This document shows, in pieces, positions 25,467 to 39,488 of a stretch of 64,000 nt of DNA. The stretch lies in assembly GCA_947570215.1 (NCBI GenBank), contig CANOTO010000001.1, positions 262,735-326,734 of the forward strand. The letters run 5' to 3'. The translations under genes and the position numbers were made by a program. Origin of the DNA: an uncultured Clostridia bacterium. Its GTDB lineage: Bacteria; Bacillota; Clostridia; Christensenellales; CAG-314. The notes under the pieces were generated by a model. It did no database searches, was not told where the DNA came from, and saw nothing but the letters and a program-made list of their open reading frames with translations. Each line of letters starts with the position of its first letter. Within the stretch, counting starts at the first letter, position 1.

Positions 25467-25980
25467 TTTTTCTCCGTAATAGCGAAATAAATGACAATTG
25501 CAAAAAAAAATTTGCGGAGTATTTCGCGTGTATATTTTATCACTGCTTACAGCGGCAGTCAATAGTCAAATTTTACTTTTAGGCAATTTTTTGCGTAAAT
25601 AACGGAGAAATTTATTGAAAATATTTAGGACGCGCGCTTTCGCAGGCCTTTTGAAGCATGCGGCGAGTTTAATCCCACACGTAAGAACGATACGCGAAGC
25701 AAGGTTTGGCATCGGCTTTACAAATCGCCTTATATTGCAAAGACGGTATACGCTGTCGCCAACCACCGCAAACGAGCCTTCATTCAATCTGCAGAGCCCG
25801 TTTTATTCCACGTTGATTTCTTCTATTTTCCAAACGTTATTCCCGCGGCAAAAAGTATCGCAGCCTTGCTAAAAAATCAAAGAAAACACGGCGGACTTTT
25901 GTTGGGGAAACGCGACGCAAACAGACAAGCGGCGCAAAGCCGCATTGGGAAAAACTTTAACGGAAACATTGTCAATTTTG

Positions 25981-26009
25981 TTGACAACCTTTTATTTTTT
26001 TGATATGAT
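25981..26009 (+). promoter_or_regulatory. Promoter of the tRNA cluster
   Basis: TTGACA (25981-25986), 17 nt, TATGAT (26004-26009), about 60 nt upstream of the first tRNA. Confidence 0.55.
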
Positions 26010-26069
26010 AATTAGGCTTTTGACAGTGTAGAGGCGAATTGGAACTTCGAATGTTGGGAAAAGCAATAT

Positions 26070-26146
26070 GGCGGCGTAGCTTAGATGGTTATAGCGGCCG
26101 GTTCATACCCGGCAGGTCGTTGGTTCGAATCCGACCGCCGCTACCA
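26070..26146 (+). tRNA. tRNA with a CAU anticodon (elongator Met type; Ile2/lysidine cannot be excluded)
   Basis: A cloverleaf folds by hand. Acceptor GGCGGCG/CGCCGCT, anticodon loop TTCATAC, T-loop GGTTCGAATCC, 3' ACCA encoded. Confidence 0.85.
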
Positions 26147-26152
26147 AAATAC

Positions 26153-26227
26153 GGCTCCTTGGTCAAGCGGTTAAGACATCGCCCTTTCACGGCGGTAACA
26201 CGAGTTCGATTCTCGTAGGAGTCACCA
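26153..26227 (+). tRNA. tRNA-Glu (UUC)
   Basis: GGCTCCTTGGTCAAGCGGTTAAGACATCGCCCTTTCACGGCGGTAACACGAGTTCGATTCTCGTAGGAGTCACCA is the classic bacterial tRNA-Glu scaffold. Confidence 0.9.
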
Positions 26228-26230
26228 TAT

Positions 26231-26306
26231 GGGGAGTTAGCTCAGTTGGGAGAGCATCTGCCTTACAAGCAGGGGGTCACAGGTTCGAGCCCTGTACTCC
26301 CCACCA
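26231..26306 (+). tRNA. tRNA-Val (UAC)
   Basis: GGGGAGTTAGCTCAGTTGGGAGAGCATCTGCCTTACAAGCAGGGGGTCACAGGTTCGAGCCCTGTACTCCCCACCA, with anticodon loop CTTACAA. Confidence 0.9.
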
Positions 26307-26383
26307 TACAGTGCCCGGTCGAACCTTTTAGGTTAGGCTGGGTATTTTATTTAGAAACACGCATTACGGCGTGTTTTTTGCAT
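26300..26383. repeat. att-like direct repeat, left copy (tRNA-Val 3' end + flank + terminator)
   Basis: CCCACCATA..GCCCGGTCGAAC..TTTT...GGGT.TTTATTT..GAAACACGC...GGCGTGTTTTTTGCA recurs at 30463-30547. I estimate roughly four fifths identity by eye. Confidence 0.7.
26356..26380 (+). terminator. Terminator of the tRNA cluster
   Basis: AACACGC-ATTACG-GCGTGTT followed by TTTTTT. Confidence 0.7.
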
Positions 26384-26656
26384 TTAATGGGGCGTTGTGT
26401 GTCGTCAATTAAGTTTTCTTTATTTATATGAGTTCTATTAAATAAATTTGTATGAGAAATGAAATTATCACGGGTATTGACACGGTGTGGTATAATGTAA
26501 TTAGGGAAAGTGATTATTCATAGCGAACGCACTACACAATGTAACGCGTTCGCTTGTTTATTGTTACGTAACATTCAAACTGTGGGGCCTGAATTAAATT
26601 TACGTTGTTCAATATATTACTTTCCTGTATTTTACAAAAAGGAGAAATATATAATT

Positions 26657-27244
26657 TTGAATGTGTTTGATAATATCAGAGACAAAGTGTTAAGCCTGTT
26701 CAATCAAAACGGTTGGATAAAGTGGATACATGAAGGAACAATGCGAGCCTACGACAACGAGGATAAAAAGTCAAATATAATATATGCAAGTAAAAGTAAT
26801 CACTGCGCCAAATGCCTTAATATGAACGGTTGCTGCTTTCCTAGAAATAATATGCCGAATTATCCGTTGCATTACAACTGCCATTGTTGGTTAATGCCTG
26901 TAAACAATATACATTTTGAAGCAACAAGTACTAACGAGAAATTTACTATAAATATTTTCAATCCAACGGAAACGAACGGCAAAATTGTGTTGTTTGAAAG
27001 TTTAGGATATGATAAAATGGATTATGAAATGCTAATTGATTTGTATTGCAAACAGGCCAAAGAAAAATACTCTAACGGGGATTTTATTTTAGGTAAGTTA
27101 GACAACTTTGGTCAACGTATCAATATTGTCATTGCATTACCAAGTAAAGATGGAAGCCGAATTAAATATGTTAAGTCGGCTTGGATGGTCTATCCTGACG
27201 GAAAAATCAAATTAATAACCGCAGACGGAGGGAAAGTAAAATGA
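26657..27244 (+). CDS. MuF C-terminal stub fused to an uncharacterised ~115-aa C-terminal domain (candidate toxin, module A)
   Basis: The probable start is TTG at 26657, about 12 nt after GGAG. The ORF-track start at 26510 lies upstream of a leader hairpin. CAKCLNMNGCCFPRNNMPNYPLHYNCHCWLMP matches the C..C..lnG.vF...P.HpNCrC end of phage Mu F / SPP1 gp7 head-morphogenesis proteins. The rest of the protein belongs to no family I can name. Confidence 0.6.
   Translation: MNVFDNIRDKVLSLFNQNGWIKWIHEGTMRAYDNEDKKSNIIYASKSNHCAKCLNMNGCCFPRNNMPNYPLHYNCHCWLMPVNNIHFEATSTNEKFTINIFNPTETNGKIVLFESLGYDKMDYEMLIDLYCKQAKEKYSNGDFILGKLDNFGQRINIVIALPSKDGSRIKYVKSAWMVYPDGKIKLITADGGKVK
26786..26928. repeat. 143-bp perfect direct repeat, copy 1
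   Basis: Checked base by base against 29589-29731: identical. It covers the MuF CxxC...HxNCxC motif. Confidence 0.95.
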
Positions 27245-27639
27245 AAGAATATGATTATATAAAGTTATTGGTTGAAAAAGAGCGATATGCCAAAGACAAC
27301 GTACATAAAGGCATGACGGGATGGATATGCGACGAAAGAATAATAAATGATTGTCGTCTAGTTTGTTTTGATAATTGTGATTTGGAAGACTATCCTATAA
27401 TCTCCATTAAAATCGAAGACATGGAAGTAATTTGGAGCGCACCGACAAAAGACATCGGTACTGAAGTCATTTTATCCGTCAGCAATTACGAGAATATCGG
27501 ACTACATAGAGGACTGAAAGGAACAACCATTGCAAAAGGTGAAAAAGACAATCAATGGATTGTACGTTTTCACAAACAAGACGGGTTACAGCAAGAAACA
27601 GAATGTACACTTAACGAAAGCGACATAGTAATTATCTAA
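27241..27639 (+). CDS. Small protein with two SH3-like halves; candidate immunity/antitoxin of module A
   Basis: ATGA overlap with the upstream stop. The two halves (YDYIKLLVEKERYAKDNVHKGMTGWICDE...VCF and GTEVILSVSNYENIGLHRGLKGTTIAKG...VRF) look like an internal duplication. It is a paralogue of 30043-30441. Confidence 0.65.
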   Translation: MKEYDYIKLLVEKERYAKDNVHKGMTGWICDERIINDCRLVCFDNCDLEDYPIISIKIEDMEVIWSAPTKDIGTEVILSVSNYENIGLHRGLKGTTIAKGEKDNQWIVRFHKQDGLQQETECTLNESDIVII

Positions 27640-27640
27640 A

Positions 27641-27671
27641 ATTCGTTTTAGGTTGTGAATACCCCACCATA
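27641..27671. repeat. 31-bp module-end repeat containing the CCCACCATA core (middle copy)
   Basis: ATTCGTTTTAGGTTGTGAATACCCCACCATA versus 30441-30471 ATTCGTTTTAGGTTATCTAATTCCCACCATA. Confidence 0.7.
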
Positions 27672-28157
27672 ATAAACCCATAACCCATTATTTTTGACTT
27701 CAACATCATTTAACGCTGATTGTATCATCGTTGAAAATGCTGATATTCCCCATGTCTCCCAAGCGCCTTTTATGTTTTCCGCCACGATGTTGATAATATT
27801 AGTTCTTAATGTGTAATACGATGTATTCTGAATAAATAATTCACCATAAGTTTCAGTCGCGCGCGGTGCTATCGTTAAAGTATCGTAAAGTGCTTTTTCT
27901 ACTACGTATTTAGTAATATCTAACTCTTTTATAAAACCGCTTTCATTATTTGTAATTGAAAACAGTCCTACATTTAAGCCATAACGTATAGTACCACTTA
28001 CGCTTCCGCTTGCTAAGATAGTAGATGCGTTGATTAGTATTTTGTTGATATGGTCGATTTTTTGGTTTGTAATAATCTGACAATTATTTGTTGTGATTTT
28101 TGAACTGCTGCTACGTGGGGTTATCCACGCATTATTTGCCGGAAAAATAGATGCCAT
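27648..28157 (-). CDS. Hypothetical protein (169 aa), AT-rich island gene
   Basis: Long ORF with GGAGAAGAAAAT upstream of the ATG. No motif recognised. Confidence 0.5.
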   Translation of the reverse strand: MASIFPANNAWITPRSSSSKITTNNCQIITNQKIDHINKILINASTILASGSVSGTIRYGLNVGLFSITNNESGFIKELDITKYVVEKALYDTLTIAPRATETYGELFIQNTSYYTLRTNIINIVAENIKGAWETWGISAFSTMIQSALNDVEVKNNGLWVYYGGVFTT

Positions 28158-28207
28158 ATTTTCTTCTCCTTATTGACATTTAATGATTTTTAATGTATAT
28201 TTTGATT

Positions 28208-28585
28208 ATGAAACGATTAAACAAAAAGCAGATTGTCTTCGGCTCAATCGCATTAGGTTGCCTTTTATTTTTAATCTATATCCTTATCTGCCCTTTGGGT
28301 TATTTAAGCAATAGATATTTTTGTTACTTTTCAGAGCAACACAAAATTATGAGCGTTGGATTTGGAACAAAGTTTGACAGAAGTGGCTTTGACAATCCTT
28401 TTGTTGTGTTAGGTTATATTAACGTTCCACAAGTCGTTATCTTTTGTGCTATATCACTGATTTTGATTGCTTGCATCGTACTTGTTTGTAAAAATACGCC
28501 CCGTCGCCCGACTAAGGCGGAACGCCTGCAAGCACAAATCGACGAACTGCAACAGCAGGTTGACGAGTTGAAGAAAGGGGACTAA
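28208..28585 (+). CDS. Hypothetical two-TM membrane protein with a C-terminal coiled coil
   Basis: MKRLNKKQIVFGSIALGCLLFLIYILICPLGY..., a second TM segment VVIFCAISLILIACIVLV, and the tail AERLQAQIDELQQQVDELKK. Confidence 0.5.
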   Translation: MKRLNKKQIVFGSIALGCLLFLIYILICPLGYLSNRYFCYFSEQHKIMSVGFGTKFDRSGFDNPFVVLGYINVPQVVIFCAISLILIACIVLVCKNTPRRPTKAERLQAQIDELQQQVDELKKGD

Positions 28586-28678
28586 CTCCCCTTTCCTTAT
28601 GCTGCTTCATCATTGTGCATTAAAAAAGGACGATGCCTATCGCCCTTAATTTTTATATTAAAAAAGATTGACGTCTGC

Positions 28679-28863
28679 TGTGAACCCCAAAAGTTGGATA
28701 AATAATATAGTTAGATTTGATGTGAATGAGTTCGGTACTGTACCGGACTCATTCCGTTTAGTGTTAGAGATATTCTCTTGTTATTCCAATAGTTGATGTA
28801 CTCTTTCAGACGGTGGACGAATTCGTCCACTGTCTGAAACTTTTCACCATAGTACATTATCGT
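28679..28863 (-). mobile_element. IS3-family insertion-sequence remnant (3' end of the transposase ORF plus a putative terminal inverted repeat)
   Basis: The C-terminal ~50 codons read ...YYGEKFQTVDEFVHRLKEYINYWNNKRISLTLNGMSPVQYRTHS, the typical IS3/IS150 OrfB tail. TGTGAACCCCAAAAGTTGGA at 28679 is a plausible IR starting with TG. The rest of the IS is absent. Confidence 0.6.
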
Positions 28864-29472
28864 CGTGTAATTGCCCGAGTTAGTCAACCGCGGTATTGCG
28901 TCTATGACCGCCCCGATTTGCACAAGGCACTCCCACAACGTCGTTTGCGTGTTCCACTTAAACTGCGGAGACTTAATATTCTTTAACGCATACACCACCT
29001 TGTTTTCAACCGTCAACGAATATTGCGCGGTTTCGCTTTGTCCGTAGTCGAACGGGACAATATCGAGCAACCGCGTTACAACGTCAAACAAGCTGTCGCG
29101 CTTATCTACCGCTTCGGGCTGCGTTACGCCTATGCCGTCTATCAACACGCCTTCAAGTGTTTTACTTGGCTCTACCAGTGCCACTTCGTGCGAATATATG
29201 CCCTGTTCGTCATCGTCCGCTCGAGCCAACGCTCTGTTGTCCGTCCCCACATACCAAAAGATTTCCCATTCCGTCGGAGAATACCGTACGCTTACGTTGT
29301 AATGCGCAAGCGGGGCGACCATACCTTTGCCGTGCGCTTCCGTCTTCAAATACCGCAGCGTTCCGCTGTCTAACTCTGCACCCAACTGAAACACTAAATC
29401 TATCGGCGACTTGGCTCGCAATTCGCTCTCTAAGCCGCCTTCATTTTTCAACAATCTTGCTTCTACGCTCAT
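28711..29472 (-). pseudogene. Chimeric ORF: N-terminal ~200 aa of a phage tail/minor structural protein fused in frame to the IS3 transposase tail
   Basis: The start MSVEARLLKNEGG follows AGGTGGACAA. The middle part ...YSHEVALVEPSKTLEGVLIDG...SLFDVVTRLLDIVPF...PQFKWNTQTTLWECLVQIGAVIDAIPRLT resembles N-terminal regions of siphophage tail-tip proteins. The junction is near 28863. Confidence 0.5.
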
Positions 29473-29588
29473 TTGTCCACCTACCTGTTTTGCCCGGACA
29501 GATATCCCGCGCGCCGAGCCAATTCGCTTGCGTTGCGGTTCTGCCACATAATCGGTGTGTGATATTCTTGTAAAAGAGTGCATGCGCG

Positions 29589-29731
29589 GCAAGTAAAAGT
29601 AATCACTGCGCCAAATGCCTTAATATGAACGGTTGCTGCTTTCCTAGAAATAATATGCCGAATTATCCGTTGCATTACAACTGCCATTGTTGGTTAATGC
29701 CTGTAAACAATATACATTTTGAAGCAACAAG
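29589..29731. repeat. 143-bp perfect direct repeat, copy 2
   Basis: Identical to 26786-26928. Confidence 0.95.
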
Positions 29732-30059
29732 CAATTTGCGTAAGTTCGAAGAATATGCTTTAAAATTCAAACCCGTAAACGATAAAAGTGGATTGTTTTT
29801 AAAATGGGGCTATGATATAATGGATGCAGATTGGTTATTGCAAGAATATTGCCGTCAAGCGCAGGAAAAATATGCTAACGGAAAATTTACTCGTTTTAAA
29901 TTAGATGACTTCGGCCAGCATATAAATATTAAAATAACATTGCCACGCAAAGACGGGAAAGGCAGTGTCACATTAACGTCGGGTTGGTTAGTATACCCCG
30001 ACGGAGAGATTAAGCTAACAACACCATATGGAGATAAGGAATATGAAAGAATACGATAG
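29625..30059 (+). CDS. 5'-truncated paralogue of the MuF-stub/unknown-domain gene (module B)
   Basis: The frame is open from 29574, and the first ATG at 29625 lies inside the 143-bp repeat. The C-terminal domain ...WGYDIMDADWLLQEYCRQAQEKYANGKFTRFKLDDFGQHINIKITLPRKDGKGSVTLTSGWLVYPDGEIKLTTPY is homologous to module A but diverged. No RBS is seen upstream. Confidence 0.55.
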   Translation: MNGCCFPRNNMPNYPLHYNCHCWLMPVNNIHFEATSNLRKFEEYALKFKPVNDKSGLFLKWGYDIMDADWLLQEYCRQAQEKYANGKFTRFKLDDFGQHINIKITLPRKDGKGSVTLTSGWLVYPDGEIKLTTPYGDKEYERIR

Positions 30060-30441
30060 CGTAAAACTAACAGTAGAAAAAGAAAAATACGCCAAAGAGG
30101 GCGTGCACAAGGGAATGATCGGCTGGATATGCGACGAAAGAATAATAAACGAGCAACGATTGGTTTGCTTTGACGGAGGAGAGGTATCTCCCTTTCCCAT
30201 ATTACCGATTAAAGAATACGATTTAGAAGTCGTATGGGAATCGCACGAAAGGCAAGTAGGAGACAAAGTTCTTTTTTTGTCGGAACAGTACAAAAACGTA
30301 GGCATTGCAAAAGGATTGCGAGGCGTATTGATTGCCAAGTTGGAAAATAACAAATGGACAATCCGTTTTCACAAACAAGACGGATTACAACAAGAATGTG
30401 ATTTGACGGTTGACGGAAACGATTTTATAGTTGACAATTAA
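30043..30441 (+). CDS. Small protein with two SH3-like halves; candidate immunity/antitoxin of module B
   Basis: MKEYDSVKLTVEKEKYAKEGVHKGMIGWICDERIINEQRLVCFDGG... is a clear paralogue of 27241-27639. The start was trimmed from 30028 to the ATG at 30043 by analogy, and follows GGAGATAAGGAAT. Confidence 0.65.
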   Translation: MKEYDSVKLTVEKEKYAKEGVHKGMIGWICDERIINEQRLVCFDGGEVSPFPILPIKEYDLEVVWESHERQVGDKVLFLSEQYKNVGIAKGLRGVLIAKLENNKWTIRFHKQDGLQQECDLTVDGNDFIVDN

Positions 30442-30471
30442 TTCGTTTTAGGTTATCTAATTCCCACCATA
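30441..30471. repeat. 31-bp module-end repeat containing the CCCACCATA core (right copy)
   Basis: See 27641-27671. Confidence 0.7.
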
Positions 30472-30547
30472 GCATTGCCCGGTCGAACATTTTGTTTGAT
30501 TGGGTCTTTATTTTGAAAACACGCAAATTAGGCGTGTTTTTTTGCAC
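30463..30547. repeat. att-like direct repeat, right copy (displaced tRNA-Val flank and terminator)
   Basis: See 26300-26383. Confidence 0.7.
30518..30544 (+). terminator. Duplicated tRNA-cluster terminator
   Basis: AACACGC-AAATTAG-GCGTGTT followed by TTTTTTT. Confidence 0.6.
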
Positions 30548-30789
30548 TATAAATAACCGGAACCGCGTGTTAGTGTTATACTATAAAGCGCCTTCGTTGT
30601 CGAGTGGATTGTTTCACTATGGAAAATGTTTATTTTACTATTTACAAATAAAATAATATACGCAAAATTTATCATGGGCATTGACCCACGTAAAAATCGA
30701 GATTACGCTATTACAATTTATTACAAATATTACATGTTTTAGGTTATCTGATTTCAACCGTCAAATCCCATAAACGAAAGTTCGTTTAT

Positions 30790-31260
30790 GGAGTTTGCTT
30801 ATTTTCGAGCTTTGCGCAGCCGTAACGGAAGAAAGAACGTCGACGCTCCACATACGCGACACGGACAGCGACGCTATATTCCACCGCGAAACCGCGCCGT
30901 TGACAATGAGATAATACTTAACGCTGAAATCGCTTGCGTTAAAATCCGCCGAAGATTTCCTGACGCTGTACAATTTCCGTTCCATACAAAACGTTCAGCT
31001 GTCTGCCTAAAAGAGAAACATTCTACGACACGGTTCCGCTAAACGCTGACGACATGTACCTGCATACCCCAAACGTCAACTCCTGCTACTTCGGCGAAGT
31101 GGACGCAACCTGCGACAACGAAGGAGAAATACTCGCCCGCCGCAAACGCGGCTTCGATTTGTTGAAAAAAACGCCAGACTTTTCGATTAACAAGCCCGTG
31201 CCAGGCAGCTGCAGCGAAACGTGGTCGGCAAAAGGTTCTTCGCCGTTTTATTTGGCATGA
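30790..31260 (+). pseudogene. Possible decayed gene (frame-shifted coding-like fragments)
   Basis: Two + frames give protein-like stretches, ...VTEERTSTLHIRDTDSDAIFHRETAPLT* and ...YKTFSCLPKRETFYDTVPLNADDMYLHTPNVNSCYFGEVDATCDNEGEILARRKRGFDLL... Neither has a start or RBS. No family recognised. Confidence 0.25.
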
Positions 31261-31536
31261 CAGAATTCACGCAAAAGCAATTCGCCGCATGGCGTTAAAA
31301 ACCTTCGGCAATCAAAGCGCGGCAAACGCGTTTTTTCTCGACGTATAGCACTTTGCGTTGCTTTTAACTTTAGTCCGTATAACACTTGCCTTAAAAAGTT
31401 CTTTTAATCGGGCGTTTTTAGTTTTCGATTATTATTTTTACAAAATTATTTTTTTTTAGCAACAATTTTGCCGGCTCGGTTGTTATATATATAGAGAAAG
31501 TACATTAAGTTTCAAAAAAACAAGGAGAAAAACACT

Positions 31537-32475
31537 ATGAAAAAAATTATTGCTTTTGTATGCATAACGCTTACCGCCGTTATAACCTTGTCGCTGTGCG
31601 CTTGCAACATTACCAACGGCGCGCTATCGTCAGACGACGTATACGGAATAGGCGCAGTTTCCGCTGCCAAGCTGCTGGGCAGCAGCGTGTCCGCCAACGC
31701 CATCGCCACTCTTTCCGCCGCTACTAAGGCTATGACTGCGGAAAGCTCCGAAGCGTCCGACGTTAAAGATAACATCGAACGCTTTAACCAATACTTTGCC
31801 GCTTTGGACAGCTTCCTTGGCGAAGAACTGGTAACTACCGTTACTGTCGAGAATACTAACCCCGATTATCCTTTCGATACCGTTATGACCATTACAGGTA
31901 AGGATATTAACGGAAACGACATTCCTTACACCATGTATTATTCCGAAACTCTTGTCAGCAACGAATCCGACGAAGAAGAATCGGAAAAAGAATTTCTGCT
32001 TACCGGAATTATGGTAATAGACAAAGTAGACTACTACCTTGAAGGCGAACGTACCGAAGAAAGCGAAAAGGACGAGCAGGAAAACGAGCTTAGAATAAGA
32101 GCGTACTTAGACAAAGACGTTAAAGACTCCTACATTCAAATGGAGCAGGAAGTTTCGCAAGAAAACAATGAAAAAGAAACGGAATACGTTTACAGCGTAT
32201 ACTCCGACGGAACGCTTGTAGAGCAAACGGCAATAGAATTCGAAACGGAAAGAAAAGGCGCAAAGGAAGAAACGAAATACGAATTAGAGTTTATTCAAGG
32301 CGCGGCCAAGGGCAGATACCGGCTTAAAAAAGAATCCGTTAACGGACAAACGCAGATAAACGTGGTTTATCAATTAAACGGCAAACAAGGCGAATTTACA
32401 ATTAAAGAAGTAGAAATAGACGGTCAAACTCATTACCAATATCGGTTCTCTGACGATGCCATATTGATATTTTAA
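31537..32475 (+). CDS. Acidic lipoprotein, function unknown
   Basis: MKKIIAFVCITLTAVITLSLCAC lipobox. The mature part is Glu/Asp-rich. RBS AAGGAGAAAAAC. Confidence 0.75.
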   Translation: MKKIIAFVCITLTAVITLSLCACNITNGALSSDDVYGIGAVSAAKLLGSSVSANAIATLSAATKAMTAESSEASDVKDNIERFNQYFAALDSFLGEELVTTVTVENTNPDYPFDTVMTITGKDINGNDIPYTMYYSETLVSNESDEEESEKEFLLTGIMVIDKVDYYLEGERTEESEKDEQENELRIRAYLDKDVKDSYIQMEQEVSQENNEKETEYVYSVYSDGTLVEQTAIEFETERKGAKEETKYELEFIQGAAKGRYRLKKESVNGQTQINVVYQLNGKQGEFTIKEVEIDGQTHYQYRFSDDAILIF

Positions 32476-32545
32476 TTAAAAAATACAAATCCTGCCGATA
32501 CGGATAAGCTTGTTTTATCGCTCAAACCGTTATCGGCAGGATTTT

Positions 32546-33145
32546 TTATTTTTTCAAATACTTACGCGCTTTGCCTTCCTTTACAGTTAGATAGCTGCGC
32601 CCTATGGAAAACGCTCCGTCCGGCACGTCCTTATCCACCGTGGTTCCGCACGCTATAAAACAATCGTTACCGACATATAACGGCGCGACAAGGTTAGAAT
32701 TGCATCCTATGAAGCAATTGTCCCCTACCGTCGTTTTGTGCTTAACCTTGCCGTCGTAGTTGACGAAGATAACGCCGCAGCCTATGTTCGTACCCTTGCC
32801 TACGTACGCGTCGCCTACATAAGACAAATGACTTGCCTTTACCCCGTCGCAAAGCGTACTCTTTTTTACTTCCACATAGTTACCTATTCGGCAGCCGTCG
32901 CCGACATACGCATGCTCGCGCAAATGCGCGTTTGGACCTACGGTACAGTTCGCGCCTACTTCGCTACTCTCTATACGCGACGACTTGACGACTGTGTTTT
33001 CGCCTATTACGGAATCGACAACGTAGGAGAAGCTCCCCACAACGCACCCGTCGCGTAAAACGGTGTTTCCGCGTACCACGGCGTACGGTTCTATTACGAC
33101 GTTATCGCCTACGATTACGCTGTCTTCTATGTAATAATTCGTCAT
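32546..33145 (-). CDS. Stand-alone left-handed beta-helix acetyltransferase equivalent to the C-terminal half of GlmU
   Basis: ...VGPNAHLREHAYVGDGCRIGNYVEVKKSTLCDGVKASHLSYVGDAYVGKGTNIGCGVIFVNYDGKVKHKTTVGDNCFIGCNSNLVAP... aligns with the GlmU acetyltransferase domain. The upstream neighbour spoIIE ends 37 bp before this gene's start, so there is no room for a uridyltransferase domain. Confidence 0.8.
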   Translation of the reverse strand: MTNYYIEDSVIVGDNVVIEPYAVVRGNTVLRDGCVVGSFSYVVDSVIGENTVVKSSRIESSEVGANCTVGPNAHLREHAYVGDGCRIGNYVEVKKSTLCDGVKASHLSYVGDAYVGKGTNIGCGVIFVNYDGKVKHKTTVGDNCFIGCNSNLVAPLYVGNDCFIACGTTVDKDVPDGAFSIGRSYLTVKEGKARKYLKK

Positions 33146-33182
33146 CGGTTTCTCCGCGTTTTTTTGCTACATTGTATGCGCG

Positions 33183-35441
33183 TTAGGATATCTTTGCCAC
33201 AAGCACCGTCATATCGTCGCGCGCCTTGTTGCCTACAAGCTTCAACGCTTTGTTCAAAATCACTTCCGCTATGCTTTGCGGAACGTTCAGCGATACGTTG
33301 GAGAAAACGCCCGCTATCGCTTCGGGGTCCTTGAAGCAATCCGCCACCCCGTCGGACATAAGCACTATCACGTCGCCGACGGTTAGCGCCTTTTTAGTAA
33401 CGGACGGCTTCATCTCGTCCAAAACCCCAAGCGGCAGGCTGCTGCCGGCGACGATTTCCACCTTATCTTGGCACTTGACAAGCCCTACCGAAGCGCCTAA
33501 CTTGATAAAATCCGTCAAGCCGTCGTACAAATCTATCGCCACTATATCCACCGCGCAAAATACTTCGTTACCGCTTGTCGTAAGCAATTTGTTAACGCAG
33601 GAAAGTATAATGTCGGAATCGAACCCCGCGCGGTAAAAGCTTTCCACCAAGCCTATAGAAGTTGCCGACATTTGCTCCGCCTTGTCGCCGCTGCCCATAC
33701 CGTCGCACAGCGCAACTATACATTTGCCGTTGTCCGTACGCAAAACCGAATGAGTATCGCCGGAGATTTCGTTACCGTCTTTAGCTACCGAACTTACGCC
33801 GAATGTCACGTTAAACCGCGGCTTAACAGATAGATATACGTTATCCCACGAAACGCTGTCGGTGTTTTCCACCTTGTCCACCGCCATATTCTGTTTTACG
33901 AGAGCGGATACGATTTTTTCTATGGCAGCATTGTCCACGTCCTTTTTGGCTACGGTGGCTACTACCATCAGCTTGTCCGCCTGCTGCGCCACAGTAGCCC
34001 CTACGCACATAATATTGTGAAACACCAACCGTTCCACAAGCTCTTTTTCTTTGTCACGGTTATAAAAGGTATTGTTTTTGCAGTCGGAAGCAAGTCGCAT
34101 AAGTAAGTCGGATACTCCGCCCATCTGTTCGCCCAATAGCGTTTTGCCGCTATCCGACTGTTCCGTACGCTCGGCGTATTCGCGATAGTTTGCCGCTTCG
34201 GCGTTTACTTCCTGCAAAATCGCCGACACTCTGTCACACTTGACGGAAAGCGTTTGCGGAACGTCCAATATGGTGCTCTTACCGCGTTTAACGGCGCAGG
34301 CAGTCAGTTTTAACAAACTCTGTTCGGTAGAAACCAATTCCTGACGCCAACACTTGGAACGCTCCGAGCAATCTCGGCACACCGTCTCGGAGCATTGCTT
34401 CACAATGGACGCTTCCGCCTGTTCGGTGGTAACTCGCCCCGCCGACATAGTATAAAAGGCGTTCTTCATAGACAGAAAAATATCCGACAAACGGTACAGC
34501 CTGCGTGATACCGTATCGCCGATTTTTTTCGCAACGCTCTTACCGAGATACCTGTCGGCGTTACCGGAGCTGTAATCGCGTACGTAATTATACACAGCCG
34601 TGGGTATCACTGCGAAAACCAACGCCGAAACGAATGACGGCACTATACCGAGCATCTCCGCCTGTCCGTGAAGTCCCATAAGGTATGTCATCAAAACGTC
34701 CACCACCAACACTGCCACGGACGAAAGATACCGACTGACCCTGTTGACGGTAATAACGGACAAAGCCGCGATTACGCAATATACGCAGCAATCGTACGCG
34801 CCCGTAGCCAAAATATTGCCCAAGCCGAACAAAATTGCCGAAACCAGCGCCGTTTCTTCGCCGAAGCAAACGCTGCAAAACAGTACCGCGAAGGTTGCCA
34901 CCAAATACACGGGCTCCACTCCCCAAAAGGACAGCTGCGACAGGCAGTAGGATACGGTAGCTGTAAACAGAGCTATACACACCCGTTCGTCTAACGCAGG
35001 TCGGTAGCAAAGTCCCCGAACGAACACGGCGCGGAAAACATAAATGGAAACGTAAGCAAACGCAATGCCCGTAACGCAATATAAAATTCTGTCAAACAGC
35101 GTAAAATAATCCACAAATTTGTAAACGCAATAAAATACGTTGGCAACGACAAGATACAGCAACAAATTGAGCTTGCCTATCTTGCGTTTGACAAGCAAAT
35201 GTATTCCCCAAAACAACAGCATTACCGCTGCGCGCACGCCTGCTTGCAGCAAGCTGCCCAGCCCGTAAGCCGCCGAGCTTGCCAAGTATACTACGGACGC
35301 AATTATCGGATTTGCCGAATACAGCGCGCCCACAAACAAACCGAAGGAAATCGCTCCGCCGAACACCCCGCCCGAGCTTACGGAAACGGCGACGTAGGTT
35401 ACGTACAAAAATATCGTTTTAGCAGACAGTCTGCGTTTCAT
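33183..35441 (-). CDS. spoIIE: Stage II sporulation protein E (PP2C phosphatase with a polytopic N-terminal domain)
   Basis: About 10 TM segments precede a PP2C domain with ALCDGMGSGDKAE and MSDGV. The start was set to the ATG at 35441, 7 nt after a G9 run that can serve as the SD. Confidence 0.9.
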   Translation of the reverse strand: MKRRLSAKTIFLYVTYVAVSVSSGGVFGGAISFGLFVGALYSANPIIASVVYLASSAAYGLGSLLQAGVRAAVMLLFWGIHLLVKRKIGKLNLLLYLVVANVFYCVYKFVDYFTLFDRILYCVTGIAFAYVSIYVFRAVFVRGLCYRPALDERVCIALFTATVSYCLSQLSFWGVEPVYLVATFAVLFCSVCFGEETALVSAILFGLGNILATGAYDCCVYCVIAALSVITVNRVSRYLSSVAVLVVDVLMTYLMGLHGQAEMLGIVPSFVSALVFAVIPTAVYNYVRDYSSGNADRYLGKSVAKKIGDTVSRRLYRLSDIFLSMKNAFYTMSAGRVTTEQAEASIVKQCSETVCRDCSERSKCWRQELVSTEQSLLKLTACAVKRGKSTILDVPQTLSVKCDRVSAILQEVNAEAANYREYAERTEQSDSGKTLLGEQMGGVSDLLMRLASDCKNNTFYNRDKEKELVERLVFHNIMCVGATVAQQADKLMVVATVAKKDVDNAAIEKIVSALVKQNMAVDKVENTDSVSWDNVYLSVKPRFNVTFGVSSVAKDGNEISGDTHSVLRTDNGKCIVALCDGMGSGDKAEQMSATSIGLVESFYRAGFDSDIILSCVNKLLTTSGNEVFCAVDIVAIDLYDGLTDFIKLGASVGLVKCQDKVEIVAGSSLPLGVLDEMKPSVTKKALTVGDVIVLMSDGVADCFKDPEAIAGVFSNVSLNVPQSIAEVILNKALKLVGNKARDDMTVLVAKIS

Positions 35442-35448
35442 TGCAGCA

Positions 35449-35457
35449 CCCCCCCCC
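35449..35457. repeat. Homopolymer C9 (+) / G9 (-) followed by A8
   Basis: Read directly: gcaCCCCCCCCCaaaaaaaa. Confidence 0.95.
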
Positions 35458-35559
35458 AAAAAAATAAGGTCTATATGCTATGCTACAACGTTTAACACCG
35501 CTTCTTTTGAAATCAATAGTCGCAAATTGTATTATTATGAAACAAATCTACGCGTAACG

Positions 35560-36063
35560 CTACATAACTTTGCACAGCAGACACGCCGCTATGCCGCCGA
35601 CCAAATTGCAAAATAACGCTATAGGAATGGCAAAACCGGTATGCTTGACCTTGGTTCCCGCAAAATACACGCTCGCCACGTAAAATACCGTTTCGCTGCT
35701 GCCGAAAATGCACGAAGCGCACCTACCCACGTAGCTGTCTACGCCGTACTGCTTGTACACGTCGGCAAGAACGGCAAGGCTGCCGCTACCCGTAAATGGA
35801 CGCAGCAGCATAAGCTGTACCACTTCCGTCGGCACCCCTACAAGACGGAAAGGCGGAGAAAGAAACCTCACCAAATAAATATCCAAACCGCTTGCCCTAA
35901 GACAATTAACCATAATAAACGTCGCCGCAAGATACGGAAATATCGACAAAGACAGGTCGAAAGACTTCTTCGCGCCCAATACGAAGCCGTCGTAGACGTT
36001 AACGCGTTTTATCAGTCCGTAAACAAGAACTGTTATTAAAAGTACGGGTACGACGTAATTCAT
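35560..36063 (-). CDS. spmB: Spore maturation protein B
   Basis: 167-aa polytopic nucleoside-recognition-type membrane protein. It overlaps spmA by 4 bp, the typical spmAB pair arrangement. Confidence 0.8.
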   Translation of the reverse strand: MNYVVPVLLITVLVYGLIKRVNVYDGFVLGAKKSFDLSLSIFPYLAATFIMVNCLRASGLDIYLVRFLSPPFRLVGVPTEVVQLMLLRPFTGSGSLAVLADVYKQYGVDSYVGRCASCIFGSSETVFYVASVYFAGTKVKHTGFAIPIALFCNLVGGIAACLLCKVM

Positions 36064-36617
36064 TTTTTCGCCCTACCGTAAGCGACGAATACAAGCGCGA
36101 TGCCTATGACCGACGTGATTGCGGTTGTTACAAGGTTTGGCAATATTATATCCGCAGGGTTTGCCGAACCGAGGGAAGCGCGCATTCCTATAACCGTTGT
36201 CGGAAGAAGCTGCACACTTGTTGCATTTACTACAAACAACATTACGCCCGAGCGGGATAAAGTTTCTCCCTTTTCCGTTTCGCGTATGGCGGAAATAGCG
36301 GACGGAGTTGCGGCGTTGCCTACTCCCAACAAATTAGAAGCAAGATTGAGCGATACGTAGCCTGCGGCGGCTTCGCTGATATTTCCGTACAGCCGTTTAT
36401 TAAGCGGTTTAAGAATCCGAGACAGTTTTTCCACCAAGCGGCAATTTTCCGCCACCTGAAAAACGCCCAGCCATACGCAATATACCGCACATAGCTCCAA
36501 CGCAGTTTTAAGCGCCTGCGACGAGCTATCCAAGCATACCGTCAGCACACTTTGCGGATCTAAGAATGTAAGCGCCGCAATTGCGGCGACAGTTACTACC
36601 GTCCACACAATATTCAT
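36060..36617 (-). CDS. spmA: Spore maturation protein A
   Basis: 185-aa membrane protein with ...LLGVGNAATPSAISAI... (Gate/nucleoside-recognition domain). Confidence 0.8.
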   Translation of the reverse strand: MNIVWTVVTVAAIAALTFLDPQSVLTVCLDSSSQALKTALELCAVYCVWLGVFQVAENCRLVEKLSRILKPLNKRLYGNISEAAAGYVSLNLASNLLGVGNAATPSAISAIRETEKGETLSRSGVMLFVVNATSVQLLPTTVIGMRASLGSANPADIILPNLVTTAITSVIGIALVFVAYGRAKK

Positions 36618-36730
36618 AGTGTATTGTATTGAACGCGCGTTGCAACTATTCGATAATTATCGTTGACTTTTGCCCGTATATTAGATAAAATAATACCGTA
36701 GACGTAATATGCGGCGTCTTGGGAGAATGA

Positions 36731-38719
36731 ATGAACAGCCGAAAACTTTTACTGCTATTTATATTGCTTCTGTTAACGGCGGCGTGCTTGACGCTTACTT
36801 CGTGCTACGAAGAGTGGACGGACGTGTCCGCCGAGCTACTGCAAATAGAAGGTGCGGAAATAAGCGATTACTCAACCGAAATAACGGTAGATAACGAGAC
36901 GTATTACATAAACTTCGGCGACAAAATTACCTGCCCCGACAGATACGAGTGGAAACTGTTTGACGGATACGGTTACGAACTGACAAATAAAACTGCGCCG
37001 ATTATGGACAACGGATACAATTATTTTATCGTTAAACTGTTTTACAACGGAACTGCAACAGAACACGTTTACACGGTAAAGGTGTTCCGCAATTATTACG
37101 CTTATATACGTTACTACGTAAACGACGATTTATTATCGAGCGAAGAAGCTATGACAAACACGCTTTACAACGTAAGCACGACTATCGTTCCGTCGAAGAA
37201 CGGGTACGAATTCGTCTGTTGGACGGATTACGACGGGAATACGGTAACTCAGCTTACGCCTACGCACAGCGTCCGTCTTTACGCGAAATTCCGCCCAAAA
37301 ACGTACGACTTTACGCTTGACGTTAACGGCGGAGACCCGTTGTCCGACAGCGTTGTGCCCGTAACCTACGATCAAAACTACAAATTACCCGTGCCTAAGC
37401 GCGAAGGCTACGACTTCGTTTGTTGGCAGGACGAACACGGCAACGCCTACACCGATAACGCGGGCAACAGCCTGAGAGCGTACAGCTACTACTTCAACCC
37501 GCAGCTTACGGCCAAATGGTCGGCAAAAAGCTACGACGTTACGGTAGACTGCGACGTAAGATTCGGCAGCGTTACGGGAAGCGGAACATATGAGTTCGGT
37601 TCCCAAGTGACCGTTACCGCAAGCAACGGCGGAAGTTATCCTTGGGCAGGTTGGTACGACGGAGACGACTTGGTTTCGACCGACGCGGAATATACGTTCA
37701 CAATGCCGTCGCACAACGTCAGCCTATACGCCAAATGGCGGGAATACCTGTTTACGGTCACGCGTCACGACGAAGGCGAACAGCAAGAAACGTTGTCAAG
37801 CAAAGAATACTCGGCGGGCGACGCGGTTACCGCAACGCGTTCAACGCGCGAACGAATTGTTACCAATACTTCCGTTACGCTGTTCGTTTGGCAAGGATGG
37901 TACGAATCCAACCGATTAATTACAACGGATAACGAATATCGATCGGTTATGCCCAACCGCAACATTAACGTTACCGAGCGTTGGACGAAATTAACTTTCG
38001 AAACGGAATCTCCGCAAATCACGCTGACATTGTCAGACGTAAACCCAGCAGTAGGGGACGAACTTACCGTTACCGCTACGTCGAACGGAAGTAATGCGCT
38101 TGCCTGGTATAAGGACGGGACAAAACTATCCGATAATCTGTCTGTCACTATCGCGGTAGACGATAAAAACGCAGAGTACTGCCTTTCTTCCGACGGATAC
38201 CGACTGAACGTTGCCGTTTCTAATTACAGCCAATTAAAATTTTCTATTAAACTGTACGGCGAAGATAAAGAATATGTCTTTAACGACGATCACTCTTTTT
38301 TTCTACAAAGCGGCACAGTAACTACCATTATTATAAAATACGAAGATATGTCGTATGACCGCGGAAATATTTTACTATGGAAAGGCTGGAAAAATGAAGA
38401 CCAATTGCTGACGACCGAATACGAGTATACGTTTGAAATGCCTGCGGAAAACGTATTTTTATACGGAAATGTAGAATATGGAATTTTTTCTATAGGGTCA
38501 CTCTTCCCAGAAAAACTTTCATTGCCGTACGGTTTATATAAATACGGCGAACAAGTTACGTTAACGGCTCCCAATGTCAACGGGTACGAATTTGTTGGTT
38601 GGCAGTATATTGATAACGCTACAGCCGAATCGATTAGGTTGACCGAAAACAACACGCTGATTATTTCTCTTATTCCGCAAAACGGAAGGTACTATGCGGA
38701 ATACCGCAAAATAAATTAG
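36731..38719 (+). CDS. Surface lipoprotein with multiple Listeria-Bacteroides (InlB B-type) repeats
   Basis: Lipobox LTLTSC. Repeats GYEFVCWTDYDGNTVTQL...LYAKFRPKTY, GYDFVCWQDEHGNAY...LTAKWSAKSY, WAGWYDGDDLV...LYAKW and GYEFVGWQY. Confidence 0.8.
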   Translation: MNSRKLLLLFILLLLTAACLTLTSCYEEWTDVSAELLQIEGAEISDYSTEITVDNETYYINFGDKITCPDRYEWKLFDGYGYELTNKTAPIMDNGYNYFIVKLFYNGTATEHVYTVKVFRNYYAYIRYYVNDDLLSSEEAMTNTLYNVSTTIVPSKNGYEFVCWTDYDGNTVTQLTPTHSVRLYAKFRPKTYDFTLDVNGGDPLSDSVVPVTYDQNYKLPVPKREGYDFVCWQDEHGNAYTDNAGNSLRAYSYYFNPQLTAKWSAKSYDVTVDCDVRFGSVTGSGTYEFGSQVTVTASNGGSYPWAGWYDGDDLVSTDAEYTFTMPSHNVSLYAKWREYLFTVTRHDEGEQQETLSSKEYSAGDAVTATRSTRERIVTNTSVTLFVWQGWYESNRLITTDNEYRSVMPNRNINVTERWTKLTFETESPQITLTLSDVNPAVGDELTVTATSNGSNALAWYKDGTKLSDNLSVTIAVDDKNAEYCLSSDGYRLNVAVSNYSQLKFSIKLYGEDKEYVFNDDHSFFLQSGTVTTIIIKYEDMSYDRGNILLWKGWKNEDQLLTTEYEYTFEMPAENVFLYGNVEYGIFSIGSLFPEKLSLPYGLYKYGEQVTLTAPNVNGYEFVGWQYIDNATAESIRLTENNTLIISLIPQNGRYYAEYRKIN

Positions 38720-38734
38720 CATTACCGCAAAACA

Positions 38735-38773
38735 GGGGGGCGGACGCATAGACGTCCGCCCCCTATTTTTTTT
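38735..38773 (+). terminator. Intrinsic terminator
   Basis: GGGGGGCGGACG-CATAGA-CGTCCGCCCCC followed by TATTTTTTTT. Confidence 0.8.
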
Positions 38774-38846
38774 GAAATATTTTGTAAAAAAGCGTCGCTG
38801 CAATTTTTTTATTCCGTCGCCGCTTTTTTATAGAATTTCAACGGCT

Positions 38847-39266
38847 TCAACCTTCCTTTACTTCGGAAAACACCGGCGTTACCCGTTTATTTTGCAAAAC
38901 GCCTTCCTGTACGTGTATTTCTTCCCGATGGGTAATGTTTCCGTCTGCGTCGAACTCATAAACGTCAACAGTATTCGCAGACGCGGCGCAGATTAACGTC
39001 CAACGTACGGTTACTCCTTTTTTACCCTGTTCGTAAGTGCCTTTGTGGGTAATGACGTTTTTGTCTTCGAAAATACGCGCGTCGAAATACTCTCTCGTTA
39101 CCGTGCCGTCTTCGTTAAAAACAAGATACTGCTCCTGCTGGAAGTCGCTTGTTACACTGCCGGGGTATCCGCCCGTAAGCTTGTAGGTTTTACCCGATAC
39201 GTTTACCTTGTTGCCGCAAGCGGCAAGGCGCATCACGCAACGGTAGAAATCAACAATATAATTCAA
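38847..39266 (-). CDS. Small hypothetical protein, possibly a lipoprotein with an atypical or damaged signal peptide
   Basis: TTG start. ...MRLAACGNK contains a lipobox-like LAAC, but the preceding segment is short and not very hydrophobic. Confidence 0.5.
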   Translation of the reverse strand: MNYIVDFYRCVMRLAACGNKVNVSGKTYKLTGGYPGSVTSDFQQEQYLVFNEDGTVTREYFDARIFEDKNVITHKGTYEQGKKGVTVRWTLICAASANTVDVYEFDADGNITHREEIHVQEGVLQNKRVTPVFSEVKEG

Positions 39267-39311
39267 AAAATCCTTTCACAAAATTTCTCCCTTTTTTGAT
39301 ATTTTTATTAT

Positions 39312-39320
39312 CCCCCCCCC
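39312..39320. repeat. Homopolymer C9 (+) / G9 (-)
   Basis: Read directly: ttatCCCCCCCCCggcaa. Confidence 0.95.
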
Positions 39321-39411
39321 GGCAAAGTTCAAGCAAATACAACACGTTTGCGAAATATTCTCGACGGCAAGGTCTGCACGGCGTACGGTTTTGCCAAATA
39401 ACTCCAAGCGG

Positions 39412-39440
39412 TTTACAAAAACGGGATAGGGTGCTAAAAT
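39412..39440 (+). promoter_or_regulatory. metG promoter
   Basis: TTTACA (39412-39417), 17 nt, TGcTAAAAT with TAAAAT at 39435-39440. Confidence 0.55.
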
Positions 39441-39488
39441 AATACTTACAATCGCGCGGTTTCATTAGCCGCACGAAAGGAGCAGATT

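Follow-up and report, generated by a model that had tools for sequence, protein, structure and literature searches.

The window analyzed here, a stretch of 64,000 nucleotides from an uncultured Clostridia bacterium of the order Christensenellales (contig CANOTO010000001.1), contains an island of foreign genes downstream of a tRNA-Met/Glu/Val(TAC) cluster. The segment from position 26307 to about 31342 is probably (we put the probability near 60%) an array of integrative cassettes devoid of recombinase genes, which accreted at the 3' end of tRNA-Val(TAC) and in which the tip of a candidate toxin was switched by recombination. The end of the tRNA is repeated within the segment, and the repeats belong to a motif family associated with tRNA genes and with genes for a large serine recombinase (LSR). 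Intact elements of this family show an inverted-repeat architecture, and the locus is polymorphic between strains. An LSR of this family would have made these particular junctions, and the cassettes would move in trans. Coordinates are given in Table 1; genomes (G), contigs (C) and loci (L) are designated by numbers, and searches of the own genome were run on its 1.53-Mb assembly (93% complete, mean GC 46%).

Table 1. Features of the tRNA-Val(TAC) locus, in window positions
Feature	Position	Strand	Remarks
tRNA-Met/Glu/Val(TAC) cluster	26070..26306	+	ARAGORN and Rfam
tRNA-Met	26070-26146		
tRNA-Glu	26153-26227		
tRNA-Val(TAC)	26231-26306		
Last 25 nt of tRNA-Val, putative B half-site (target)	26282-26306	+	same 25 nt at an LSR element junction in G051
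Core copy 1, CCCACCATA	26300..26308	+	acceptor end plus 2 nt; direct sequence reading
Left flank, two hairpins	26307..26383	+	CCCGGTCGAACC..GGTTAGGCTGGG and AACACGC..GCGTGTTTTTT; read as tRNA operon terminator and proximal arm of cassette 1
Cassette 1 (proposed)	26307-27671		flank, promoter, module A, P arm, core
Module promoter and structured leader (~150 nt)	26476..26656	+	TTGACA..TGGTATAAT; kept in every module copy
Gene 1A, 195 aa, candidate toxin	26657..27244	+	MuF/gp7 C-terminal Cys/His stub and DUF6883
143-nt perfect repeat, copy 1	26786..26928	+	conserved Cys/His segment of gene 1
Gene 2A, 132 aa, candidate cognate immunity protein	27241..27639	+	follows gene 1 always
P arm and core copy 2, TTCGTTTTAGGTTGTGAATACCCCACCATA	27642..27671	+	putative distal end of cassette 1; not followed by flank hairpins
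orfX, 169 aa, AT-rich	27648..28157	-	no significant family; one weak PADLOC match
Mosaic segment	27672-29588		orfX, orfY, IS3 remnant, phage-like fragment
orfY, 130 aa, membrane protein with coiled-coil tail	28193..28585	+	part of phage-like block
IS3-family remnant, last ~50 transposase codons and element end	28646..28863	-	rve_2, E 2.7e-16
Phage-like fragment	28864..29588	-	first ~203 codons of a 260-aa gene and end of the gene upstream
Remainder of cassette 2 (proposed)	29589-30471		orphan B, immunity B, P arm, core
143-nt perfect repeat, copy 2	29589..29731	+	orphan module B begins here
Orphan gene 1B fragment, from codon 44	29589..30059	+	without promoter, ribosome binding site or start codon
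Gene 2B, 132 aa, intact immunity-like ORF	30043..30441	+	
P arm and core copy 3, TTCGTTTTAGGTTATCTAATTCCCACCATA	30442..30471	+	putative distal end of cassette 2
Cassette 3, empty (proposed)	30472-30760		flank, 188 nt, decayed P arm and core
Right flank, two hairpins	30472..30547	+	79% identical to left flank; read as proximal arm of 'empty' cassette 3
Remainder of cassette 3	30548..30797	+	188-nt spacer, decayed P arm and core (30736-30760), hairpin CCCATAAACGAA..TTCGTTTATGG of canonical B'/P' type
Frameshifted cargo pseudogene	30840..31342	+	tblastn, three pieces in three frames

The tRNA-Val gene is intact and foreign DNA begins past its CCA. The stretch from the acceptor end through the two hairpins (26300-26383) aligned with 30463-30547, the flank alone being 79% identical. 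A 32-nt repeat at the module ends (27640-27671 versus 30440-30471) was 81% identical, and an echo matched at 88% over 24 nt (30736-30759), followed by a hairpin (30762-30797) of the canonical CCYAAAACGAA type. Core copies were located at 26300-26308, 27663-27671 and 30463-30471, with a decayed one near 30750. A preliminary description of the locus had already pointed out the repeated tRNA end and flank, the module-end repeat with a third core copy and the weaker echo, and these were all recovered, as was its inventory of two module copies, two unknown genes, a remnant of an IS3-family insertion sequence (IS), a phage fragment and no recombinase; the second module proved to be 5'-truncated at 29589. 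The interior, described there as AT-rich, has indeed 31-40% GC in 26400-28800 and 29600-30800, against 48-52% in the neighboring DNA and the 46% of the genome. The phage-like piece at 28800-29600 has 48-52%, so the island is AT-rich in part only. Its extent, given as 4.2 kb, had to be enlarged: with at least three cassette ends and a cargo pseudogene reaching ~31342, the hotspot covers ~5 kb. Family profile searches of the island proteins detected no recombinase domain in any open reading frame (ORF), and an Rfam scan of 25900-31000 returned the three tRNAs only, with no family for the module leader or the motif.

Similarity to the window ended exactly at the CCA of tRNA-Val (26306-26307) in no fewer than 11 of the genus genomes, and the content 3' of the tRNA was different in each genus genome examined. 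The comparison with empty sites suggested in the preliminary description yielded no truly empty site among the relatives examined, because in none of them did the genes of the right flank adjoin the tRNA cluster. The locus has the repeated tRNA end, the intact tRNA and the strain variability of a tRNA-integrated island, and lacks an integrase of its own. Repeats linked to tRNA genes can also arise without any mobile element, through local duplication of the tRNA 3' end and its terminator by slippage or unequal crossing-over; the repeats downstream of E. coli tyrT are an example. The repeated unit does include the tRNA end and the terminator. However, the copies are kilobases apart and separated by foreign, AT-rich, strain-variable genes, and what lies upstream of each distal copy is a conserved arm (the P arm, TTCGTTTTAGGTT) and no tRNA sequence. 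Local duplication is consequently a most improbable origin for this arrangement.

The module-end repeat was found to be one occurrence of a 28-nt motif shared across the lineage, TTCGTTTTAGGTT-N7-10-CCACCA, behind which a terminator hairpin stands. The pattern TTCGTTTTAGGTT-N7-12-CCACC gave 10 matches in eight of the 47 genomes of the genus and none with the reversed-pattern control. Its CCACCA version occurred in more than 119 stretches of a species-representative genome collection; about five in six of the motif stretches inspected came from metagenome-assembled genomes (MAGs) of Christensenellales/Clostridia. The single match in 2.9 million viral contigs had neither LSR nor tRNA and was considered to be due to chance. 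Directly before motifs of the family type (consensus TTCGTTTTAGGTTACTACYGCTCCACCA) comes either A/T-rich sequence or a gene's stop codon, and after them a hairpin and a T-run. These motifs lie 145-5200 nt downstream, on the same strand, of tRNA-Ala(CGC/GGC), tRNA-Val(TAC/GAC/CAC) or tRNA-Tyr, with up to three copies per 8 kb. The core beside the P arm corresponds to the local tRNA, namely CCCCACCA at tRNA-Val(TAC) in the window, CTCTACCA at tRNA-Val(CAC) on contig C5 of the own genome and CTCCACCA at tRNA-Ala. Cassettes with a P arm and no recombinase were 0.13-2 kb long. Their cargo comprised membrane proteins, a helix-turn-helix (HTH) protein and a large unannotated protein (L043/L044), GNAT and deaminase-like genes (G018) and a gene for the DNA glycosylase Tag (L042). 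A reading of the P arm as a degraded T-arm and acceptor of a tRNA was dismissed, since the P arm exceeds such a sequence by 5 nt, lacks a T-stem and shows conservation from genome to genome.

Other units were observed in the same genome and in relatives. On C5 (86900-88505), tRNA-Val(CAC) is followed by a canonical AACCTAAAACGAAC hairpin, a promoter, a gene for a 398-aa coiled-coil protein, TTCGTTTTAGTTT-N-CTCTACCACCA and a second canonical hairpin, and the core of this cassette matches the 3' end of its tRNA. The stack behind tRNA-Tyr (C7:107300-109783) comprises one GNAT gene, one gene of the HTH/membrane type and two ends that resemble P arms with 1-2 mismatches, and ~200 nt downstream of tRNA-Ile (C15:7788-8110) lie a displaced 12-nt fragment of the tRNA 3' end and a canonical hairpin. 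In G018, tRNA-Val(TAC) precedes a GNAT cassette with a degenerate end, a 137-aa gene with a cytidine-deaminase-like gene, and a decayed P arm, ATTCGTTTTTAATTACTACTGATTTACCGCA (L020 6303-8680, G018:C2). Deaminase-like cargo of the G018 type was also seen inside or behind LSR elements at tRNA-Ala (L073, L111).

The association with an LSR emerged from clustering the ORFs around 120 motif loci, taken among the matches listed. The commonest family, present at 14 of these 120 loci and located 1.3-4 kb upstream of the motif, encodes a protein of ~500 aa with the Pfam domains Resolvase, Recombinase and Zn_ribbon_recom, a combination that identifies it as an LSR. A rolling-circle Rep (REP_ORF2-G2P) is a frequent neighbor, and six of the motif-linked LSRs were 78-97% identical to one another. 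Intact elements are 4.5-5.5 kb long and contain the LSR gene, often the Rep gene and one or two cargo genes, with the P-arm motif as their far end. In L111, L158, L127 and L073, tRNA-Ala ends in ...CTCCACCA and is followed by GTCAA, AACCTAAAACGAAC (hairpin) and TTTTTT, then by LSR (-), Rep (-), cargo (+) and finally TTCGTTTTAGGTT-ACTACCG-CTCCACCA. The arm at the tRNA end, AACCTAAAACGAA (the P' arm), is the exact reverse complement of TTCGTTTTAGGTT. When attP was rebuilt from the attR and attL of L111, L158 and L127, the joined arms TTCGTTTTAGGTT-N7-CTCCACCA-N5-AACCTAAAACGAA gave a site of ~46 bp in which the 13-nt inverted repeats stand ~20 nt from each other and have the acceptor/CCA end as their center; the entire palindromic arrangement was found at nine junctions. 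Judged from their sequence, the intact relatives appear to possess LSR-type att sites, i.e. sites of ~40-50 bp with inverted half-sites around a center, and an attP with inverted arms is the layout expected of serine integrases. The P arm is spaced 5 nt wider than the tRNA's own GTTCGA, which presumably recalls the offset between attP and attB half-sites of these enzymes.

Ten further loci were taken from 401 genomes of the order by LSR similarity alone. In nine of them, the P' arm abutted a tRNA 3' end, belonging to tRNA-Tyr, tRNA-Ala(GGC), tRNA-Ala(CGC), tRNA-Ser(GCT) or a 25-nt fragment of tRNA-Val(TAC). In G051, a member of the same genus, the LSR was 80% identical to that of L111, and the 25 nt at the junction, identical to window positions 26282-26306, abutted a canonical P' arm; the genus thus does contain the LSR family, for which this very sequence can serve as target. 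Because the tRNA-Val piece at that junction is only 25 nt long, a displaced tRNA fragment may have served as attB in this case. Mobilizable elements with serine recombinases typically disrupt dispensable genes, tRNA 3' ends being the domain of tyrosine integrases (PMC5704250), which makes an LSR family aimed at tRNA ends somewhat unusual.

Two other features of the LSR elements were recorded. In L188 (G051:C7:1-12000), + strand genes beside LSR and Rep, including those for a 290-aa P-loop protein and two membrane or secreted proteins of ~465 aa, resemble by eye a filamentous-phage morphogenesis set. In L111 (1129-1470), L158, L073 and L127, the ~330 nt that separate the P' arm from the LSR stop codon are conserved, contain no ORF and include a long inverted repeat (CTTGACGTGAG ... 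CTCACGTCAAG); this stretch could be the replication origin of Rep or a regulatory RNA.

On the basis of these elements, we propose that site-specific recombination would have added the cassettes successively behind tRNA-Val. Its enzyme would come from outside the island, from the LSR family common in the order and present in the genus, which is carried by the 4.5-5.5-kb elements with the order tRNA / P' arm / LSR / (Rep) / cargo / P arm. The distal end of a cassette would consist of the P-arm half-site TTCGTTTTAGGTT-N7-8 and a copy of the last 8-9 nt of the tRNA, the crossover presumably falling within the core, and its proximal end would be a hairpin arm doubling as terminator of the tRNA operon. 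Owing to the likeness of this arm to the native downstream half-site, the tRNA junction would stay attB-like, new units would insert beside the tRNA and newer units would push older ones outward, where decay sets in. Decay was indeed found to grow with distance from the tRNA, and the extra cassette of the related contig L042 lies toward the tRNA, two observations in line with insertion at the tRNA-proximal junction. Cassette 1 (26307-27671) has kept its proximal arm and its distal P arm with core and contains only the two module genes. A unit comparable to the empty cassette 3, made of the flank, 25 nt and a P arm, was found in G010. The pseudogene beyond it was 52-66% identical to a cargo gene of the LSR element L127 (combined E 3e-48); in that element the gene is intact and abuts the P arm. 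Cassettes 1 and 2 carry a two-gene candidate toxin/immunity module, and homologous recombination within a 143-nt segment would link the expressed tip A with a promoterless orphan (tip B and immunity B).

In this module, gene 1A matched DUF6883 above the cut-off (PF21814, E 2.1e-7). Matches to MuF profiles were restricted to the last ~50 positions (59-112) of PF04233 (E 0.072, 14.3 bits for a cut-off of 29.6) and to 19.1 bits for TIGR01641 (cut-off 39.65), and a complete MuF (Phage_Mu_F / gp7) domain appears to be absent. The 49 homologues of gene 1, from Christensenellales/Clostridia MAGs, are mostly 190-220 aa long; the ~195-aa form is its conserved full length and no fragment of a full MuF gene. 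A full MuF gene of the own genome was considered as the origin of the 143-nt segment and discarded, as none was found there. The AlphaFold (AF2) model of gene 1 had a pLDDT of 90, and a PDB fold search with it returned nothing significant, the best match being a contact-dependent inhibition (CDI) toxin/immunity entry (E 0.04, TM 0.24). Gene 2A had no family match in Pfam-type, PHROG, NCBIfam or PADLOC searches; over all island proteins, NCBIfam and PADLOC matches were all sub-threshold.

Genes 1A and 1B are 100% identical in the head and 46% in the tips, and their partner genes 2A and 2B are 53% identical. In both copies a variable DUF6883 tip is followed by a small 132-aa ORF, as in the arrangement of MuF polymorphic toxins. 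The conserved head, the variable tip, the co-varying small partner, the orphan copy and the extra partner copies in G014, together with the published pattern of MuF and polymorphic toxins (PMC5576092, PMC3482391), suggest a toxin/immunity pair; given that the fold search provided no significant neighbor, the pair is regarded as a candidate only. The promoter and leader were identical or near-identical in G014 (C1, C21 and C7) and in L042. The leader (26476-26656) includes a 9-bp perfect stem (26522-26554) and its conservation across species exceeds that of parts of the coding region; it is possibly a cis-regulator of the candidate toxin gene. The module is present in 17 of the 47 genus genomes, at tRNA as well as non-tRNA sites. 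In L021 (3600-5300, G014:C21) and L022 (290-860, G014:C7), it precedes a tandem second immunity-like gene and truncated third copies, recognizable by repeated MKEYDRV starts, and the module of G014:C7 adjoins a 16S rRNA 3' end. No LSR was detected in eight contexts of a 57%-identical gene-1 homologue (P0022), whose partner gene differs (67 aa).

The relation between the two module copies became apparent from L042, a metagenomic contig 97.7% identical to window positions 29589-40045 over 10.4 kb. It holds one intact module, whose upstream region and head are 99.2% identical to module A and whose tip and immunity gene are 99.0% identical to orphan B, and it is devoid of window positions 26929-29588 (2.66 kb). 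L042 therefore joins head A to tip B, and 26929-29588 is extra DNA relative to it, bounded by the 143-nt repeat. The fused gene of this near-identical strain makes a displaced orphan toxin tip the better reading of the second module copy. The 5'-truncated toxin, the shared pre-tip segment, the intact gene 2B and the recombinant L042 together point to an orphan toxin/immunity cassette. The stop codon of gene 1B, TAA in L042, is GAA in the orphan, and the dead fragment continues six codons into gene 2B (30036-30059). As to the likely direction of the event, a derivation of L042 from a window-like array by recombination between the 143-nt repeats, which would activate tip B, is mildly favored because G018 has kept, behind its tRNA-Val array, a 69-nt trace of a phage-like cluster of the type found in G004; an origin of the window by insertion at the 143-nt segment is possible. 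Both 143-nt copies of the window share seven differences from L042, five of which also distinguish them from A-type relatives, so the copies have been homogenized within their own genome. Upstream of its module, L042 has no tRNA. It has a Tag gene ending in a P-arm motif and then the same two-hairpin flank, a unit counted as an additional cassette.

The two-hairpin flank itself was found after tRNA-Val(TAC) in five other genomes of the genus, with and without the module, after tRNA-Ala(CGC) in G018, after P arm and core in the window, L042, L038 and L046, and directly before DUF6883 modules in another genus. In the own assembly it is present at two sites only and is therefore no generic host terminator repeat there. 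The preliminary description had regarded a recurrence at other tRNA clusters as the mark of a generic terminator repeat. The flank type does follow tRNA-Ala(CGC) in a relative, but it also follows P arms elsewhere, which marks it as borne by elements. We read it as the probable proximal arm of a class of cassettes without recombinase, which by its likeness to a tRNA terminator would leave the site attB-like. In the other genus, the flank was observed before a DUF6883 module in L168 (4440-4560 and 6600-6720); there, a 2.1-kb unit is bounded by direct repeats of >60 nt ending in ...GAGTCCCTTATTGCCCACCA, and its distal arm is of a different type.

Several observations argue against cassette insertion by an LSR at these junctions. 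At the tRNA-Val junction the canonical P' arm AACCTAAAACGAA is missing: P arms are present at 27642 and 30442, and the tRNA-side arm is the two-hairpin flank, which has only the outer TCGAAC in common with that canonical arm, at a similar offset, and which could be a native terminator of the genus. As no LSR-bearing element with this module or flank was found among the 120 motif loci listed, the shared P arm is the only link between these cassettes and an LSR. LSRs normally leave a 2-bp identity between sites; the window junctions share 8-9 nt and a flank of ~80 nt at 79%, which also fits a tyrosine recombinase or homologous recombination. The sequence after core copy 2 (27663-27671) is unrelated and contains no arm, and the best LSR of the own genome, on another contig, is only 42% identical to the family. 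Modules without P arms at non-tRNA sites (G014 C21 and C7) indicate that the cargo can move by other routes. On the side of the cargo, gene 1 has no structural match, its MuF scores stay below cut-offs and its toxicity is only predicted. The left junction is not fully explained by a cassette reading.

The missing P' arm, the context of core copy 2, the distant LSR and the modules at non-tRNA sites make homologous recombination a serious partial rival. The locus would then be a mosaic, the repeats being homology arms for transformation or unequal crossing-over and the att-like motif an old relic devoid of a present role. The length (~80 nt) and likeness (79%) of the flank copies, the clean recombination at the 143-nt repeat that relates A and B to L042, the homogenized 143-nt copies and the occurrence of modules at non-tRNA sites without the motif are all in agreement with this scenario. 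It leaves unexplained, however, why the same 13-mer stands at a fixed distance from a core matching the tRNA, with diverse cargo, in more than 100 genomes, and why its exact inverted repeat is found beside an LSR at the tRNA end; in addition, similarity stops exactly at the CCA in many genus genomes. As an account of the whole locus, such a mosaic is therefore considered unlikely, and cassette insertion is retained, with homologous recombination acting on the modules.

The sequences between the modules bear on a third alternative. The 3' end of orfY (28505-28572) was 82-88% identical to two membrane-protein genes beside a phage-like cluster in G004:C13. The IS3 remnant, which matched at 86-98% IS copies that break two contigs of the own genome at their ends, is fused in frame to the phage-like fragment. 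The latter was 49% identical to G004:C13:117669-118220, within that cluster of small phage-like genes, and orfY and the phage-like gene keep the relative order of the G004 cluster. The fragment also had weak matches to the N-termini of 685-1332-aa proteins and none among 50,697 phage records. No island protein matched a structural PHROG family; PHROG matches were the IS3 transposase remnant, a weak one of unknown function (orfY) and a weak one to head morphogenesis (the MuF stub of gene 1B). Phage-like debris seems limited to 28193-29588, and this block would hardly qualify as a prophage remnant.

In the preliminary description, the island was interpreted as the eroded attR-proximal end of one or two tandem prophages, reduced to moron-like modules. 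In such a model, one or two tailed temperate phages would have entered at tRNA-Val by means of a tyrosine integrase, and deletions would have left only the moron genes near attR. The phage-like fragment and a possible lysis-type membrane protein in the order of the G004 cluster, the 69-nt trace of that cluster which G018 has past its tRNA-Val array, and the fact that MuF-type toxins are typical of temperate phages (PMC5576092) would agree with this. The repeated ends, however, belong to the motif family of ~5-kb LSR/Rep elements and 0.13-2-kb cassettes, which had a single, chance match among the viral contigs. By coordinates, no tyrosine integrase adjoins the Met/Glu/Val cluster in any of the 47 genus genomes; a candidate in G005, 22 kb from the tRNA-Val cluster, was discarded because it has no tRNA-end repeat. 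Gene 1 is a conserved stand-alone gene of ~195 aa in a genome without full MuF, and the phage-like block has only ~1.4 kb and a normal GC content. A prophage origin is accordingly very doubtful, and this part of the earlier interpretation was abandoned: the ends are best viewed as P-arm half-sites of small LSR elements with or without Rep. Its other elements were retained in the cassette array, namely repeats as the footprint of site-specific insertion at a tRNA 3' end, several units in tandem, and retained genes as cargo beside distal (attR) ends.

A broader and more tentative proposal, which we would not yet call probable, is that Christensenellales possess an integron-like system on tRNA genes. 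Cassettes of one or two genes with LSR half-sites and no recombinase would be captured, piled up and exchanged at the acceptor ends of various tRNA genes by LSRs acting in trans from the LSR and Rep elements, the proximal arm would replace the terminator so that the site is reusable, and the cargo of the window would be a switchable toxin/immunity set. An integron in the strict sense (IntI, attI, attC) was rejected, as the locus has no tyrosine recombinase and the cassette ends are LSR-type half-sites, not attC. If the proposal is true, the small streamlined genomes of gut Christensenellales would store accessory genes (toxin/immunity pairs, GNATs, a deaminase, a DNA glycosylase, restriction-like genes) in stacks anchored at tRNA genes and serviced by serine recombinases that unusually target tRNA 3' ends and restore both tRNA and terminator. 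The motif TTCGTTTTAGGTT-N-CCACCA would allow such cassettes to be found directly in metagenomes. The elements would also offer natural attP/attB pairs on conserved tRNA genes for one LSR family, and the window a worked case of how an orphan tip is switched in a polymorphic-toxin-like protein of very small size.

The locus appears to combine known kinds of arrangement: accretion as in cis-mobilizable elements (CIMEs), LSR cassette arrays like those of the staphylococcal cassette chromosome (SCC), and orphan polymorphic-toxin modules. Tycheposons of Prochlorococcus and their integrase-less satellites also occupy tRNA 3' hotspots with tandem partial tRNA repeats and cargo-only units, but they use tyrosine recombinases, are larger and belong to a different phylum. 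SCC and pseudo-SCC arrays are located at the 3' end of rlmH, depend on the Ccr large serine recombinases and have cassettes bounded by att-like repeats. Like the Enterococcus cassette chromosome (PMC6222049) and SCC, the present array would result from integration of the LSR type behind a conserved gene, at its 3' end, and form a composite with recombinase-less cassettes. It differs from SCC in that the targets are the acceptor ends of several tRNA genes and the arm doubles as tRNA terminator, LSR family and cargo being unrelated. With MuF polymorphic toxins (PMC5576092), the candidate toxin shares the C-terminal MuF/gp7 Cys/His motif, a variable C-terminal domain and a following ORF of <150 aa; it differs from them by its conserved full length of ~195 aa, without complete MuF domain, head-morphogenesis module or prophage. 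As in the orphan tips of CdiA/Rhs systems (PMC3482391), a promoterless toxin 3' fragment and its immunity gene lie downstream of the expressed copy and share with it a pre-tip segment where recombination exchanges the expressed tip, L042 representing the fused form. In contrast to those systems, the head is ~90 aa long with no recognized secretion or trafficking domain, both tips belong to a single domain, as homologous variants with 46% identity, instead of having unrelated folds, and the array lies inside a tRNA cassette hotspot. A likeness in organization also exists to streptococcal CIMEs and the accretion of integrative and conjugative or mobilizable elements (ICEs, IMEs), where att-type ends are kept, integration genes are lost and units stand in tandem at the 3' end of the target gene (PMC5704250). 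Unlike CIMEs, the units here are 0.13-2 kb long with one or two genes, the implied recombinase is an LSR and not a tyrosine integrase, and the autonomous relatives, by which they would be mobilized, are ~5-kb LSR and Rep elements and not conjugative. An incoming autonomous element can integrate beside a CIME (PMC5704250), as it would beside the units at tRNA-Val.

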